From IMG/VR virus record IMGVR_UViG_3300045988_149282, positions 1 to 64,000 of that record: a DNA stretch of 64,000 nt. One strand, 5' to 3'. Of this stretch, positions 53,650 through 59,618 are shown piece after piece (within the stretch, counting starts at the first letter, position 1; each line of letters begins with the position of its first letter). Source of the DNA: a virus. Lineage: Duplodnaviria; Heunggongvirae; Uroviricota; Caudoviricetes. The translations under genes and the position numbers were made by a program. The notes under the pieces were generated by a model. The model was not told the origin of the DNA. It saw only the letters and a list, made by a program, of their open reading frames with translations, and ran no database searches.

Positions 53650-53798
53650 TTCCATACATCTCATTAGCTTTTATGGGTGGCTTCCTTATCGGCTTCGGCA
53701 TCTGTCGTGATTTAATTAAGCAGGAACTTAAAACCAAAACACTGTGCATCGGAAAGCGTGTGTATCGGGTAGTTCATGAAACAAAGGTTAAAAAATGA
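53646..53798 (+). CDS. small membrane protein (~50 aa), paralogue family member
   Basis: Not in the ORF track (short); ATG overlaps the upstream stop; TM helix plus basic tail (GKRVYRVVHE) resembling 53271..53450. Confidence 0.35.
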   Translation: MIPYISLAFMGGFLIGFGICRDLIKQELKTKTLCIGKRVYRVVHETKVKK

Positions 53799-54085
53799 GC
53801 AATTTAACTTCTTGGGACTGGTGGTTGGCCACCTATTTCTTAGCGGCCGGAGTCGCATTCGCCTTTTACGTAGGTCAGTTAGTCGTAAAACTGTTGCTGA
53901 TTAAATTTGCTAGTCATAAACGTATCGATGATGGTCTGTGGCGTCTTGGCACCCTGGTGGAAACTCGCTACGGGCAACTTAAGGAGAACGAAACCATTAC
54001 TATCCAGGCGAAACGATTCACTGCCACCATCACAAGAACACCTAGTCGTAGAGTGGCCTTGATCAAAAAAGTCACAACCGAATAA
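53795..54085 (+). CDS. small membrane protein (96 aa), paralogue family member
   Basis: N-terminal TM helix (WWLATYFLAAGVAFAFYVG) followed by a basic region; third member of the apparent family. Confidence 0.45.
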   Translation: MSNLTSWDWWLATYFLAAGVAFAFYVGQLVVKLLLIKFASHKRIDDGLWRLGTLVETRYGQLKENETITIQAKRFTATITRTPSRRVALIKKVTTE

Positions 54086-54094
54086 AAACATCAT

Positions 54095-54116
54095 GATAAG
54101 TATTTACTTACTTATC
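54095..54116 (+). promoter_or_regulatory. TAAGTA-type hairpin motif (GATAAGTATTTACTTACTTATC) at the head of the tRNA/ncRNA region
   Basis: Inverted repeat GATAAGTA / TACTTATC followed by a T-rich tract, at the start of the ~780-bp noncoding stretch preceding the tRNAs. Confidence 0.4.
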
Positions 54117-54863
54117 TTTTATGTATAAGATGACTTTGTTTTCGTTGAGACGCGACTGTTTGAACTTAAATACAAGTGCAAACGAAGAAGTCTATCTGGC
54201 AGTAGCCTAATAAGCCAAACACCAGCGAGGTCAGTTTCCAGCCTCGTTACCGAAATGGGACACACTGAGCGAGTGTGATTGCAGAACGCAGGAGGGAACA
54301 TTCATGTTCCCTCCGATGAAGTAACAGAATGGGCGGTTGGTATATTTTCAACTCCATATGACTCCCGGATTCTTAGCCTCTGACCGCCCATCCTGTTACG
54401 TCATTTTGTTCAATTATGTCGTTTATACTGGGTTAAAAAGCGGCGACGTAGCCCGGCTGGTATGGTTAGCCAGCACACAACGTTGAGGCCATTACATTTT
54501 TATCAATTCTAAGGTTCTATTCACAGAGATACCGGCGAGCGTTGATATGTAACATGTTGGGCAAACATTCAATCGGAGTAGTGGCCTCAACGTTGTGAAG
54601 ACAGGATTGTTGTGTAGGTTTAACCACTGTTGCCATTGGTGCCTGTTTTCACAACAAATGATTCCATACATCACATTGTATAAATTACAAAGTAGGTGCT
54701 GTCCTCAGAAACATCATCTACTTAAAGATTTTGCCTTCTACTATTGAGCGAAGTCGAAAGCGTCTGGCACTAACGAAAAGTGCAAGTAGCGGTGCGTTTC
54801 CTGGCAGAAACTAAACCGTCGCGATTGGCACTGTTGAGTAATAAATACTGGCAGTGCTGAATT

Positions 54864-54938
54864 GATGGTGTAGCTCAGCGGTAGAGCAGTTGGCTGTTAA
54901 CCAACTGGTCGGTGGTTCGAATCCACCCACCATCGCCA
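54864..54938 (+). tRNA. tRNA-Asn (anticodon GTT)
   Basis: Hand-folded cloverleaf: 7-bp acceptor GATGGTG/CACCATC, D-arm GCTC/GAGC, anticodon loop CTGTTAA, T-loop TTCGAAT, encoded CCA. Confidence 0.8.
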
Positions 54939-54943
54939 ATTTA

Positions 54944-55030
54944 GGGGAGTTAGTCCGTAGAGGTAGCGGTGTAGACTGTAAATCTACTGTCATGGCGACT
55001 CGGGTGGTTCGACTCCATCACTCCCCACCA
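54944..55030 (+). tRNA. tRNA-Tyr (anticodon GTA), class II with long variable arm
   Basis: Acceptor GGGGAGT/ACTCCCC, anticodon stem GTAGA/TCTAC with loop CTGTAAA, long variable arm, T-loop TTCGACT, encoded CCA. Confidence 0.75.
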
Positions 55031-55034
55031 AATT

Positions 55035-55110
55035 GCCGGTTTAGCTCAGTTGGTAGAGCGCCTGCCTTGTAAGCAGGATGTCAGCGGTTCGAGTCCGTTA
55101 ACCGGCACCA
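55035..55110 (+). tRNA. tRNA-Thr (anticodon TGT)
   Basis: Acceptor GCCGGTT/AACCGGC, D-arm TAGCTCAGTTGGTAGAGC, anticodon loop CTTGTAA, T-loop TTCGAGT, encoded CCA. Confidence 0.8.
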
Positions 55111-55404
55111 ACATAATATTGAGAACATTGGCGTAACGGGTTCATATCCCAATTTATGAATATAATGTTGCGTTGCAGCGTGACAACCAGTGTTCTCAAC
55201 ATTGTGGTGAATGCACAGGCTGATGTGCGACGTAGAAGCAAGCGGATGAACTGCCTGAAGGCCGCTAACGTAGGCAATGCCGGAGATCAGCACCGGCCAT
55301 CACAATTTGGCTCTCTTGCAACAGCATAACGCTGAAATACGTCCAACCTGGTGCGGTCTGATCACCCGCCGTTAGCTCCACGAAACGGAGCACACAACAC
55401 AATT

Positions 55405-55491
55405 GGAGAGTAGGGAGCATGGTGCTCAAGCGGTCTTGAAAACCGTCCCATTGTGCAAACGATGATGGTTCGATTCCATTACTCTCCGCCA
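55405..55491 (+). tRNA. tRNA-Ser (anticodon TGA), class II (candidate)
   Basis: Acceptor GGAGAGT/ACTCTCC, anticodon stem GCGGT/ACCGT with loop CTTGAAA, long variable region, T-loop TTCGATT, CCA. D-arm atypical, hence lower confidence. Confidence 0.6.
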
Positions 55492-55628
55492 GACACAGCG
55501 TTGAGCGGTTTGGCCTTTTAATCAACCAGATTAAGACTCCGCTAACATAAACCAGACCGCTCAACGCTGTGATAGACAATTACGGCAGACGTTCTTAACC
55601 ATAGCTTGCTAACATCCTAGCAACACTT

Positions 55629-55657
55629 TTTTCAGCGCAAAATTCAAAGGGGCTTCG
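55629..55657. repeat. 29-bp direct repeat, left copy, flanking the lipoprotein cassette
   Basis: TTTTCAGCGCAAAATTCAAAGGGGCTTCG; 27/29 identical to 56550..56578. Confidence 0.65.
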
Positions 55658-55669
55658 GCCCCTTTTTTG
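55647..55669 (+). terminator. Rho-independent terminator after the tRNA cluster
   Basis: AAGGGGC-TTCG-GCCCCTT hairpin followed by TTTTTT; also forms the left copy of the 29-bp direct repeat flanking the lipoprotein gene. Confidence 0.65.
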
Positions 55670-55784
55670 ATTTGTTGACACTTAGTTATATTCACGTATC
55701 GTTTTATCGCTTTGATCCGAGGCAGCGTTAGACTGCCTTCATGTTCCTGATTAGATCGCAGCAGTTAAACATGGAGACAAATTA

Positions 55785-56590: not shown

Positions 56591-57919
56591 CTATTGTGCG
56601 TACTCGCCCAATTTTAATGTTTCACGCTTATATTCATCAACTATCTCACATGATTTAATATAGATATGGCACAATAGGTTATCACTATCATCATTATCGT
56701 TTATTGCCATAAGTGCCAACTTTTTCTCATATTCATCGATCGCATCACTCAACTGATCACCTGTAATTACATCTGACTCACTCGAGAAATATAACTGCCC
56801 AAGATTTACCGCATTTTTTCCAGTTTTTCTTTGCTCTATGTAATTTTTAATCATATCCTTCACATCCTTTTCACTACTCAGTATTTCACTTTCGAAATGG
56901 ACATGCTCTGAAATCGACGCGACTCTGCAACCGATCAAACGATGAATATAGTCATCAATAGACGTAACACTATCATTAGCTTTTTTTAGTGCTTCATCAA
57001 AAATGCTCTTTACCTCATTTGGCAAATTTTTAAAATAATCATCAATTAAACCAGATAATGGTGTTTGGTAGTTCATTAATACCGATGAAGCAACTTGCGG
57101 ACGACGAGCCACCCAGATTTCTTTGACTTCAACTTGAGAATAATATTCCTTAATCACGTTCCAAAAGTATTTTAACATCTTGGTTTTAAATATTTTATCA
57201 AATCTATCCTTTATAAATAGCTCTACTTCAGGCATGCTTGAATAAGCATCATCAAAGAATATTTCATCTTTGAAAAAATCATATTTATTTAATAAAGCAT
57301 ACAGTTTTTTTGAATCCAGCGGTTCACGAGAATCGATGTCCAATCCAAAAACTGCAATAACCAACTTCATTTGCGGTGGTATTTTTCCACTCAATTGAAT
57401 AATATATTCCATTTTTTCATCAAAACAATTTCCATCTATGTAAAATCGGTTATCTACATAGACTAATATATTGGTAATATGTTTTATGTACTGAATAACC
57501 TCATGCTTTCTTACCAATGGATAAAAAAACGAATGCATTTCATTTTTATTAAATTGTTTTTTTGTCTGTTCAATGATTGGTATGACATTATTGTACAACT
57601 CATCATGCTGATTTAATAAAGTGTCAAACCATTCTTTGAAAGAATTTTTTCTCATCTCAATCAATGAATCGGTAGTTATCCTAACGGCCTCCAGTGCTGC
57701 CTTTGCACTTTTTCTTGCTTCATAGGCGTTCCACGCTGTTGCACAAAAAGCCGCTGTCGTTATAAAACTACTCAATACAGCAATTTGGTCTGTAACCTTC
57801 CAATCTTGAAATGGCTCAAGTAGTAAACCTAAAAACAAAATTATTATGGAAAACATTAGAATTGCAACAGAAATAAAAACAGGCATGTATGCTCTCGTAC
57901 TTACCATTGTTAGTTGCAT
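56591..57919 (-). CDS. membrane-anchored protein (442 aa; two N-terminal TM helices plus large cytoplasmic domain), accessory gene
   Basis: AT-rich minus-strand ORF; TM helices VFISVAILMFSIIILFLGLLL and IAVLSSFITTAAFCATAW; GATAGGTAAGTA-type motif on the minus strand upstream (57981-58002). Confidence 0.6.
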   Translation of the reverse strand: MQLTMVSTRAYMPVFISVAILMFSIIILFLGLLLEPFQDWKVTDQIAVLSSFITTAAFCATAWNAYEARKSAKAALEAVRITTDSLIEMRKNSFKEWFDTLLNQHDELYNNVIPIIEQTKKQFNKNEMHSFFYPLVRKHEVIQYIKHITNILVYVDNRFYIDGNCFDEKMEYIIQLSGKIPPQMKLVIAVFGLDIDSREPLDSKKLYALLNKYDFFKDEIFFDDAYSSMPEVELFIKDRFDKIFKTKMLKYFWNVIKEYYSQVEVKEIWVARRPQVASSVLMNYQTPLSGLIDDYFKNLPNEVKSIFDEALKKANDSVTSIDDYIHRLIGCRVASISEHVHFESEILSSEKDVKDMIKNYIEQRKTGKNAVNLGQLYFSSESDVITGDQLSDAIDEYEKKLALMAINDNDDSDNLLCHIYIKSCEIVDEYKRETLKLGEYAQ

Positions 57920-58514: not shown

Positions 58515-59618
58515 ATGAAAAATAGCTTTGACAGAGCACGCGCTGCGGAGAACACCTCAAAAGAGGCGATTGAGTATCTCGAAAGAGCATCTCAAATGCA
58601 GGCCGTTATGATCTCGCAGGTCAGCAATGACATGAGATTCTCGGACGCATTCATGTTATTCACTCGCTTATCTCTGCTGATAACAAGACGTCGGCCAGAG
58701 ATCGCTGTTCATTGTATTTTGATACATGTTTTGCCGCACATTGCCGATGTAAAAGTAAGTGACATTAATAGGTTCATGGTGAACCAACTGGTCAACCCAC
58801 TAATACTGGATGGCAAAATTGTTATGGGCCGCCGCGTTTTCTCTCTGATGAAGCAGTTCCTTAGCTGGTGCGCCTTCCAGGGGATGATAGACGTGTCACC
58901 GTTAAACGATATGTCACTAAACAAAGTTGCCGGTGGCGCAAAGCCTACACCTCGCGAGCGGAAGCTGACCGACGCAGAGGTATGGGTGTTCTGGAATATA
59001 TGGGACTACTTCAATGTGTGCGCTGGTACAAAATGGGCGGCCAGGCTGTGTCTTGTATCCGCAAGACGACCTGACGAAGTACTGCGGGCTAAAAAAAGTG
59101 AGTTCAATCTTAAGCGTGGGGTTTGGAATCAAGGCAAGAGGAACAAATCTGCCCGTGAGCATTCTCTGCCTTTAAGCTCATTAATGCGCACTTGTATTGA
59201 AGAGTTGTTCGAATATGGTAAAGACAGCCAGTGGCTCGTGCCTTCGAATAAAAAAATCGGGAAAGACCTTCCTATGTCTAAAGTGGCAATAGCCCAGGCA
59301 TTACGTCGTATTCTGGAACGACCAGAACTGATGGAGCTTGAGCCATTTACACCCCGAGATTTGCGCCGTACTGCGCGTAGTTACTTCCCAGCATTAGGCA
59401 TAAGCCAGGAGGTATCACGTAAAATCATGAACCACAGTCTTGAGGGGATAGATCGGGTCTACGACCGGCACGATTATATGGACGAGATGCGAGACGCCTT
59501 AGAAAGTTTCTCGACGTACATCGCATCAATCGTAGAGCAACCGGATTTAGACGAAATTGACCACAAATTTAAGGGAGATCGTCTATCAACAGAGCTTATT
59601 CGTGTAAATTTTTCATAG
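58515..59618 (+). CDS. tyrosine recombinase (phage integrase family)
   Basis: Catalytic-domain motifs: ARLCLVSARRPDEV (box I Arg), FTPRDLRRTARSY (H/RxxR region), RVYDRHDY (putative catalytic Tyr). N-terminal start uncertain. Confidence 0.75.
   Translation: MKNSFDRARAAENTSKEAIEYLERASQMQAVMISQVSNDMRFSDAFMLFTRLSLLITRRRPEIAVHCILIHVLPHIADVKVSDINRFMVNQLVNPLILDGKIVMGRRVFSLMKQFLSWCAFQGMIDVSPLNDMSLNKVAGGAKPTPRERKLTDAEVWVFWNIWDYFNVCAGTKWAARLCLVSARRPDEVLRAKKSEFNLKRGVWNQGKRNKSAREHSLPLSSLMRTCIEELFEYGKDSQWLVPSNKKIGKDLPMSKVAIAQALRRILERPELMELEPFTPRDLRRTARSYFPALGISQEVSRKIMNHSLEGIDRVYDRHDYMDEMRDALESFSTYIASIVEQPDLDEIDHKFKGDRLSTELIRVNFS

Follow-up and report, generated by a model that had tools for sequence, protein, structure and literature searches.

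What are the long inverted repeats that lie among the transfer RNA (tRNA) genes of this virus, and what might they do there? The window analysed here, the whole 64,000-nucleotide (nt) stretch of IMG/VR record IMGVR_UViG_3300045988_149282, comes from an SSU5-like phage-plasmid; the locus in question, which holds four tRNAs and four such repeats (I1 to I4), is 95-99% identical to its counterparts in the Escherichia phages CMS-2020a and Cyrano. Our analysis shows that the repeats are a family of long + strand RNA hairpins (19-26 bp) under selection for pairing, and the reading that we favour, albeit with about as much doubt as confidence, is that they serve as ‘punctuation’ in the processing and folding of a polycistronic precursor RNA. 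Statements about function, here and below, rest on comparative sequence analysis.

A previous sequence-only reading had picked out the tRNAs and repeats as candidate structured RNAs; what it missed is that the repeats are part of a larger conserved non-coding operon, which includes a module resembling transfer-messenger RNA (tmRNA) and a tRNA-shaped cloverleaf. The putative operon, of ~1.5 kb, would run on the + strand from a promoter at ~54103 to a terminator at 55646-55669, and its modules follow one another in the order tmRNA-like tag module, I1, small hairpins, I2/I6, three tRNAs, I4, cloverleaf, tRNA-Ser and I3.

All four repeats are present, with arms longer than first described. I1, directly 3' of the tag module, has 22-nt arms (54316-54337 and 54383-54404) that are 91% complementary; those of I2 (54476-54495 and 54578-54597, with a foot CACAAC...GTTGTG) and of I3 (55494-55513 and 55552-55571) are 20 nt long and 95% complementary, whilst the 23-nt arms of I4 (55109-55131 and 55187-55209) are 83% complementary. 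Arms of 22-26 bp enclose a loop of 37-45 nt in I1, a stem of 20-22 bp encloses 82 nt in I2, and a 20-bp stem encloses 38 nt in I3. Against dinucleotide shuffles the folding z-scores are -5.7 (I1), -6.7 (I2), -4.8 (I4) and -9.8 (I3), and none of 200 shuffles folds as stably as I1-I4. Moreover, the whole 64-kb window contains just eight inverted repeats whose arms measure 17 nt or more and lie within 130 nt, and I1-I4 are the best four of these eight, all inside 1.26 kb. The core sequence that had been noticed in two of the arms extends to a shared foot, CACA[AG]CGTTGAG / CTCAACG[TC]TGTG, common to I2, I3 and the 3' arm of I4, and exact copies of it occur in the window only at these sites.

The case for selection on pairing comes from homologues, which we compared in orthologue alignments anchored by their flanks (A1 and A2), in an arms-only alignment of 14 distinct family members (A3) and in an alignment of 22 cloverleaf variants (A4). 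With seven SSU5-like leaders aligned, RNAalifold recovers I1 and I2 together with three smaller + strand elements: H0, a perfect 11-bp inverted repeat at 54291-54314 (GGAGGGAACAT / ATGTTCCCTCC); a small hairpin at 54456-54474 (GCTGG-tatggtta-GCCAGC; RNAalifold columns 340-358); and part of I6, a 14-bp hairpin at 54592-54655 (z -3.3). Pairing in I1 is kept across the seven relatives through G-C, A-U and G·U exchanges. Four stem pairs of I2 show double changes among the SSU5-like replicons (columns 372-379 with 465-472), columns 372/472 being G-C in four and A-U in three, and columns 373/471 C-G in three, U-G in three and U-A in one. Compensatory changes replace the stem of H0 in SSU5-like relatives (columns 165-198), the hairpin at 54456-54474 carries one compensatory change from G-C to A-U, and the arms of I6 are compensated in the Klebsiella relatives pKPHS1 and Koxy16 (GTTGTGGTCACGG / CCGTGGCCACAAC; alignment A1).

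Similar behaviour is seen further afield. Homologues of I3 that follow tRNA-Asn in Enterobacter and pHCM2 have two compensated pairs (ACAGCGCTGAACGG / CCGTTCAGCGCTGT), those of I4 in P1, D6 and Ro157c2YLVW have better-paired arms (CACTACAACGTTGAGAACACTGG / CCAGTGTTCTCAACGTTGTGGTG), and in CP053388 the I4 slot is occupied by a different, compensated hairpin. The homologues in P1, D6, Ro157c2YLVW, CP053388 and K. oxytoca set the same foot beneath different distal stems, with arms of 19-27 nt, and the I1 homologues of D6 and P1 likewise have different distal stems. Across the 14 members of A3, 97.4% of stem cells are paired and 13 of 19 pairs show double changes; none of 500 shuffles reaches the observed pairing and slid registers pair at 29-55%, although the paired percentage is partly circular because members were picked as inverted repeats, a circularity from which A1 and A2 are free. 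Of the wobble cells, 16 are G·U on the + strand and three would be so on the - strand, a bias that points to RNA helices on the + strand, which is also the strand of the tRNAs.

It is the stems, moreover, that are held constant. Among the seven relatives arms are 0.83-0.96 identical and loops, which also carry indels, 0.49-0.61 (I1, arms 0.94-0.96 and loop 0.49; I2, arms 0.83-0.90 and loop 0.61), and in siphoviruses and HK620 near-identical stems surround unrelated loops of 46-72 nt. In about half of 50 representative loci the 5' arm of a long hairpin stands at a fixed distance from the start of the tag, mostly +113 or +121 in the siphovirus and lambdoid versions, many of which have an additional hairpin 5' of the tag module, and, for I1 of the SSU5-like replicons, +145 to +158. 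A hairpin scanner written ad hoc returned many false positives once its thresholds were relaxed and was kept out of the counts.

Comparison with known elements supports the suggestion that these are structured RNAs and neither terminators nor tRNAs. ARAGORN and Rfam (at E<=10 and E<=1) give no tRNA at I1-I4, in line with the earlier statement that the repeats do not fold as tRNAs, and the further statement that they are not ordinary terminators also stands, in that they have no U-tract, have loops of 38-82 nt and are not flagged by a terminator scan. No known family was assigned to any hairpin by covariance models: Rfam scans of the window and 12 related loci, at both gathering and permissive thresholds, returned only tRNAs and sub-threshold tmRNA-like matches. 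Nor did we find the hairpin family, the cloverleaf or the tag module in Rfam models, in the genome annotations inspected or in the literature searched.

How, then, might the hairpins work? Their positions fall between units: the 5' arm of I4 begins inside the CCA end of tRNA-Thr, I3 starts 2 nt 3' of tRNA-Ser, with no further structured element between it and the terminators, and I1 comes directly after the tag module. Their feet are also shared with neighbouring helices. The first 6 nt of I6 (5' arm GTTGTG...) are also the final 6 nt of the 3' arm of I2, such that I6 pairing competes with the I2 foot, and the foot of the I4 3' arm is the 5' strand of the cloverleaf; the feet can thus pair in mutually exclusive ways with the neighbouring module. 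More generally, the 3' foot GUUGUGGUG of the hairpins has a second partner, CACCACAAC, downstream, which closes the cloverleaf.

The cloverleaf itself (55201-55306, + strand) is closed by a 9-bp helix between AUUGUGGUG (55201-55209) and CAUCACAAU (55298-55306), and has an arm Pb (55213-55228, loop GGCUGA), an arm Pc (55279-55297, loop AGAUCAGCA) and a variable arm; the Pb and Pc loops are able to kiss (GCUGA with UCAGC). The fetched loci contain 22 distinct variants, found with a search pattern in which the loops were fixed and the stems and closing helix left free, and their consensus has a 5-bp Pb with loop GRCUGA and a 5-bp Pc with loop AGAUCAGYR. In alignment A4, which covers the closing helix, Pb, Pc and the loop-loop helix, 97.9% of cells pair, eight pairs show double changes and none of 500 shuffles matches; the variable kissing position is G-C in 17, A-U in three and G·U in two, with no mismatch. 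Folded in isolation, 55201-55306 has the cloverleaf as its minimum-free-energy structure, with a z-score of just -1.2.

From these observations we propose a model in which co-transcription, cleavage and the enzyme involved are all inferred. I1-I4 would be transcribed together with the tRNAs in one long non-coding precursor, within which each duplex of about two helical turns may insulate neighbouring RNAs such that they fold independently, and may also serve as the entry site for a double-strand-specific endonuclease making an RNase III-type cut. Cleavage would separate the modules and liberate the 3' ends of the tRNAs from the feet of I4 and I3, in which they are buried, with the terminal hairpins left after cleavage protecting the released RNAs. 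The conserved 9-nt foot (CACCACAAC / GUUGUGGUG) might pair either within its hairpin or with the next downstream copy, forming the acceptor-like stem of the cloverleaf, and the existence of two alternative pairings suggests that formation or cleavage of a hairpin could be coupled to folding of the neighbouring module. We favour such a role because stems and not loops are constrained, stem length is constant, the hairpins sit at module boundaries and their feet are coupled to neighbouring helices. A stem of about two helical turns (~20 bp) is also the size class of RNase III substrates, and the arms of I1-I4 measure 20-23 nt at 83-95% complementarity.

Several points weigh against this proposal. 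The 38-82-nt loops, some with conserved sub-hairpins or T-arm-like motifs (I4, 55138-55150; a sub-hairpin in the I2 loop; full T-arms in P1, Carvaje and swi2), count against it because a pure cleavage signal needs no long structured loop. The foot is conserved in sequence, beyond what pairing demands, which suggests a sequence-specific partner of a kind that RNase III is not known to require, and the usual maturation route of E. coli tRNA operons, through RNase E, RNase P and exonucleases, does not involve RNase III. The putative promoter is a poor fit to consensus (8/12 positions), Y. pestis RNA-sequencing tables list two small RNAs of pMT1, both elsewhere, and none at the homologous locus, and the family-wide covariation count from A3 suffers from the selection of its members as inverted repeats.

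The closest precedents are the intercistronic RNase III hairpins in the early and late transcripts of phages T7 and T3 (R0.3, R1.1 and others) and the stems on either side of the rRNAs in rrn operons, which likewise place stems of about two turns between the units of a polycistronic transcript; in T7 and T3, too, there are several sites per genome with common sequence features, and a terminal hairpin can stabilise the cut product. In contrast, the loops of the T7 sites are small and accompanied by an internal loop where I1-I4 have loops of 38-82 nt, some of them sub-structured, and the T7 sites separate mRNAs, whereas I1-I4 separate tRNAs and non-coding RNAs and have feet that are conserved in sequence and have an alternative downstream partner; cleavage of I1-I4 is proposed by analogy.

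A different view, which we regard as possible though rather unlikely, is that the hairpins are stable small RNAs in their own right, akin to YrlA or Y RNAs or to tRNA mimics, with a protein-binding foot and a variable or tRNA-like head; each might be a decoy or a tether for some host or phage protein, such as a defence nuclease that targets tRNAs, an enzyme of tRNA modification, RNase P or a Ro-like protein. Conservation of the foot ACAAC/GUUGU (+CACC/GGUG) across otherwise different stems would fit this view well, as would the conserved bulged A that can be read in the sequences of type-B members after 5 bp. The heads speak both ways. A canonical T-arm occurs in those of several relatives, P1 and L129 having in addition a D-like arm with GG, such that tRNA-like heads are present in P1 (L005, 2105-2193), L129, Carvaje and swi2; I1-I3, however, have no tRNA-like head with T and D arms, and I4 has only a T-loop-like hairpin (GGGTTCATATCCC, 55138-55150) in its loop, one that recurs in a second P1 hairpin. 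None of the four hairpins of the window thus has a T- plus D-arm pair, and where a T-arm is found it stands 1 to 3 nt from the stem, with as many as 3 bp added, and hence without a fixed tRNA-like geometry. Nor are the heads conserved, with loops 49-61% identical among close relatives and unrelated between phages that share a stem. The Asn, Tyr and (in one relative) His tRNAs carried alongside are of the kind targeted by anticodon nucleases, which lends some support to this view.

Precedent for such RNAs exists in the YrlA family, whose members combine a long stem with a tRNA-like domain, occur in phages, are cut by RNase P and are tied to the Ro60 gene and a tRNA-like head (PMC4201824). Like YrlA (RF02553), the hairpins are phage-borne and have a long stem, with a tRNA-like head in some relatives; unlike YrlA, they do not conserve the GNCGAAN0-1G motif and are internal to an operon, where YrlA has its own 5' and 3' ends. 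We set aside membership of that family: the Rfam model matches no hairpin (its sole match, 25.6 bits against a gathering score of 69, lies across two real tRNAs in P1 and D6), and the heads are not conserved. None of the ten flanking open reading frames (ORFs) scanned encodes a TROVE (Ro60) domain.

Other small phage RNAs invite comparison. The T4 tRNA cluster gives rise to the stable RNAs ‘species 1 and 2’ (rnaC, rnaD), whose function was long unknown, and the C4 antisense RNA of P1 and P7 is processed by RNase P; all of these are small structured non-tRNA RNAs that are transcribed and processed along with phage tRNAs or processed by tRNA-processing enzymes, much as we envisage here, but the Rfam scans gave no such family in the region.

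Bolder still, and in our estimation unlikely, is the idea that the whole locus is a horizontally mobile phage RNA cassette for manipulating translation, in which a tmRNA-like module devoid of its tRNA-like domain, kissing-loop cloverleaves and genuine tRNAs would act together and, in the boldest version, the encoded tag (...Y/F-L-A-V-A) would really be added to proteins. The tmRNA-like messenger module itself, at 54138-54290 (+ strand), comprises a structured 5' leader (54138-54177), a 10-codon tag that opens on a resume-like GCA and is closed by two stops (54178-54213), an H-type pseudoknot of which both stems covary (54226-54259), and two hairpins (54260-54277 and 54280-54290). The tag reads GCA AAC GAA GAA GTC TAT CTG GCA GTA GCC TAA TAA, that is ANEEVYLAVA, and may be compared with the ANDENYALAA of E. 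coli ssrA. Its counterparts are ANEDTYLAVA in SSU5 and pHCM2, ANEDAYLAVA in pBL12, ANDNQYLAVA in Klebsiella plasmids, ANDDLMMVAA in P1 and D6, ANDNVFLAVA in wV8, and ANEEMYLAVA in HK620 and four siphoviruses.

Both the frame and the RNA around it are well conserved. A pattern scan of IMG/VR found the module in at least 118 contigs with 11 tag variants, the 10-codon frame and stop being intact in 117 of 118, and tag position 6 in these contigs is always Y or F, encoded by TAT, TAC, TTC or TTT. Stem 1 of the pseudoknot occurs as TGAGG/CCTCA, CAAGG/CCTTG, CGAGG/CCTCG and CAGGG/CCCTG, and stem 2 as CCGA/TCGG, CCAA/TTGG and CCAG/CUGG; leader and pseudoknot together form the best-conserved part of the locus (mean pairwise identity 0.94-0.97), and a second pseudoknot can be read in the siphovirus, lambdoid and Felixounavirus versions. 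We considered and rejected an ordinary small ORF: no start codon is conserved before the tag, the only upstream in-frame ATG is that of this window and lies inside the -10 element, SSU5 has no start codon and, as we read its sequence, an in-frame stop five codons upstream, and indels of 1-2 nt fall directly before the GCA.

The likeness to tmRNA (ssrA, including its two-piece or permuted forms; RF00023, RF01850, RF04321) is thus on the messenger side, with an A-rich linker, a resume-like GCA codon, a short start-less tag of 10 codons with a hydrophobic end, stop codons within a hairpin and H-type pseudoknots after them; the tag is in register with (A)ANDENYALAA, keeping N3, the acidic residue 4 and the aromatic residue 7. 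Unlike tmRNA, the module measures only ~150 nt, is embedded in a tRNA operon, has no G3·U70 acceptor stem, CCA end or P2 helix that we could find, and is linked to tagging by sequence resemblance. ARAGORN and Rfam found no tRNA-like domain (acceptor with G3·U70, T-arm and 3' CCA) for it in the window, and ARAGORN called no tmRNA; tmRNA models match the module in every lineage, all far below threshold, the best scores being 17.3 bits in the window (beta_tmRNA; gathering score 84) and 29.2 bits in wV8 (tmRNA_permuted; gathering score 47). One candidate domain in wV8, with G3·U70 and ACCA, was rejected as a degenerate tRNA-Arg(tct), since sister phages have an intact tRNA at the same place, and the T-arm-bearing hairpin heads were rejected for want of G3·U70 and CCA and for their variable geometry. 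Were the tag to be added nonetheless, the missing part may be a split or processed acceptor piece supplied by the hairpin or tRNA-like modules, or the host SmpB-tmRNA may be co-opted.

Neither the curated P1 record nor the RefSeq annotation of E. coli genomes marks the module, and the literature searched makes no mention of the tag peptides or of phage tmRNA-like elements. In P1 (L005, 1394-1495 and 1500-1760) the tag module, encoding ANDDLMMVAA, starts immediately after the terminator of an annotated ‘dicF-like region’; since the site lies in the leader of the C1-controlled ban operon, at least two small-RNA-like units would precede the tRNAs there.

The cassette as a whole moves as a mosaic among otherwise unrelated enterobacterial phages, and is found in mosaic form in P1, D6, SSU5, pHCM2, pMT1, HK620, Felixounaviruses and several siphoviruses. 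Its left part (54096-54608) is ~80% identical in SSU5, pHCM2 (S. Typhi), pMT1 (Y. pestis) and Enterobacter and Klebsiella plasmids, and the part 3' of tRNA-Thr is ~84% identical to the ban-operon leader of P1, P7 and D6. Breakpoints of module exchange between unrelated phages lie at tRNA ends and hairpin feet, which is consistent with autonomous, separately folding units. Cyrano has neither tRNA-Tyr nor I4 nor the next 200 nt, including the cloverleaf, whilst CP054387 has an extra module before tRNA-Ser. Of 5,426 complete E. coli genomes, 778 contain matches to parts of the locus and 150 have at least 80% of it; RefSeq annotates only the tRNAs at these places.

Such mosaicism could also be taken to mean that the elements are evolutionary debris, that is, functionless remains of decayed tRNA genes and duplicated spacers in which the repeats are kept only because the CACCACAAC/GTTGTGGTG boundaries were recently duplicated or underwent gene conversion; we find this quite improbable. 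Modules are indeed gained and lost between close relatives, as in Cyrano, some heads resemble tRNA remnants, KpV2811 retains only the 3' half of tRNA-Met, and the pMT1 leader is truncated by the caf locus. But compensatory double substitutions keep pairing in several independent lineages, G·U pairs are biased to the transcribed strand, arms are far more conserved than loops, and the same architecture recurs across groups with unrelated annotated neighbours (P1-like, SSU5-like, lambdoid, Felixounavirus and siphoviruses). Debris thus fits poorly because of the covariation and the strand bias, and the same two observations tell against a role for the repeats as DNA.

The earlier suggestion of recombination sites near a recombinase gene finds no support here. 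Megablast of 54130-55680 against the 5,426 E. coli genomes, a search that misses cores shorter than 28 nt, gave no chromosomal attachment-site (attB)-like identity: plasmids account for 812 of the 827 places matched, and the one short chromosomal match shown corresponds to a spacer of a clustered regularly interspaced short palindromic repeats (CRISPR) array. The hairpin family is also carried by the fetched stretches of wV8, KpV2811, swi2 and the HK620 late leader, in which no integrase is annotated. The broader proposal of a DNA-level role, whether as att or recombination sites, as miniature inverted-repeat transposable elements (MITEs) or as single-strand DNA hairpins for priming or replication, draws on the terminal-inverted-repeat look, the tyrosine-recombinase gene 3 kb downstream (58515-59618), the primase and ligase genes upstream, the mosaic breakpoints at hairpin feet and a true MITE-like insertion in the leader of one K. 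oxytoca relative, but is in our view very improbable, given the selection on pairing, the G·U bias to one strand, the shared orientation with the tRNAs, the confinement of exact motif copies in the window to this locus, the finding of the elements in other replicons always in the same tRNA cassette (both of which led us to reject MITEs), and the absence of target-site duplications on reading the sequence, for which no systematic search was made.

The tRNAs named by the earlier reading (Asn, Tyr, Thr and Ser) were all recovered by ARAGORN on the + strand, three of them also reaching the Rfam gathering score: tRNA-Asn(gtt) at 54864-54938 (75.5 bits), tRNA-Tyr(gta) at 54944-55030 (41.6 bits) and tRNA-Thr(tgt) at 55035-55110 (74.9 bits). 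The fourth is tRNA-Ser(tga) at 55405-55491, whose acceptor stem is 8 bp long and whose T stem is 4 bp; it falls below the gathering score of the general tRNA model and scores 44.8 bits with the tRNA-Sec model (gathering score 47). It is atypical, having an architecture like that of allo-tRNA or tRNA-Sec yet a serine anticodon, and the D6 record carries the remark ‘AA not called by tRNAscan-SE’. Just 5' of it, at 55374-55404, sequence and fold indicate a hairpin (AGCTCC-ACGAAA-CGGAGC) followed by a leader, ACACAACACAATT; CACCACAAC-like leaders stand a few nt before real tRNAs (...CACCACAAC-N4-6-tRNA) in CP053388, CP054387, pIS4-A and Carvaje.

At the 5' end of the operon, conservation points to a putative sigma-70 promoter (-35 TTTACT at 54103-54108, a 17-nt spacer and -10 TAAGAT at 54126-54131), which lies directly after the stop of the upstream ORF and went unflagged by a simple scan because of its low consensus match. 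The positions are kept in nine SSU5-like replicons, where the -35 block GTATTTACTTA shows no variation and the -10 is TAAGAT or TATGAT, and in siphoviruses and wV8 the corresponding site reads TTGACA-N17-TAGATT or TAGTAA. At the other end are two terminator-like hairpins with T runs (55604-55632, read from the sequence, and 55646-55669); the sole flag from a terminator scan of the stretch, 55646-55665, falls at this far end. The claim that the region has no protein-coding potential is essentially right, with the qualification that ORFs of 40-104 amino acids exist on both strands, overlapping tRNAs or conserved RNA helices, a verdict reached by setting the ORF list against the RNA elements and not by a formal coding-potential test.

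Some further observations concern individual relatives and neighbours. In pMT1 (L014, NZ_CP006760, 1205-1718) the promoter, tag module, I1 and I2 are retained and the tRNA part is lost, since the cassette ends right after I2, beside caf1R of the F1 capsule locus. In the K. oxytoca plasmid NZ_CP064109 (L013) the conserved leader is broken, after the pseudoknot region and before H0, by a 257-bp insertion (A1 columns 196-457) that looks like a MITE and is bounded by long terminal inverted repeats (GGGGTCGGTTTGGGAAACGG... / ...CCGATCTCCAAACTCACCCC). A 33-nt segment that spans the I2 5' arm (54464-54496) is 100% identical to CRISPR-annotated chromosomal sequence in E. coli NZ_LR778147.1, such that a host spacer apparently targets the I2 region. 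The P1 genes plp and upl (L005, NC_005856, 2075-2644) lie on the - strand over + strand hairpin and cloverleaf homologues and overlap tRNA-Thr, and may be spurious ORFs given the covarying RNA structures; CYRAN_40 of phage Cyrano overlaps two tRNAs. Just 5' of the operon, a 96-amino-acid ORF (53795-54085) has no Pfam match and is called ‘C-type natriuretic protein’ in SSU5 and some plasmids, a name that is probably an annotation artefact. Elsewhere in the window, a long but poor inverted repeat (57528-57637; 27-nt arms, 70% complementary) lies within a 442-amino-acid ORF on the - strand (56591-57919) that has no Pfam match, and its weak match to mir-140 is presumably due to chance.

If our reading of the hairpins is correct, well-studied phages and phage-plasmids would carry a structured-RNA family beside their tRNA genes that has gone unannotated, and phage tRNA arrays would be assembled, and matured, as strings of modules that each fold on their own, split by conserved duplex punctuation. 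For annotation this would mean that ORFs laid over these RNAs, such as plp and upl in P1, are probably mis-annotated, and the motifs described here could serve to build covariance models. The tag module, for its part, raises the testable question of whether phages tamper with trans-translation or with ssrA-tag proteolysis; were the tag really added to proteins, P1, SSU5, HK620 and the Felix O1 relatives would own a trans-translation system with an altered degron. Arrays built in such a way would bear on a long-standing question, namely what purpose is served by phage tRNA clusters and the stable RNAs that accompany them.

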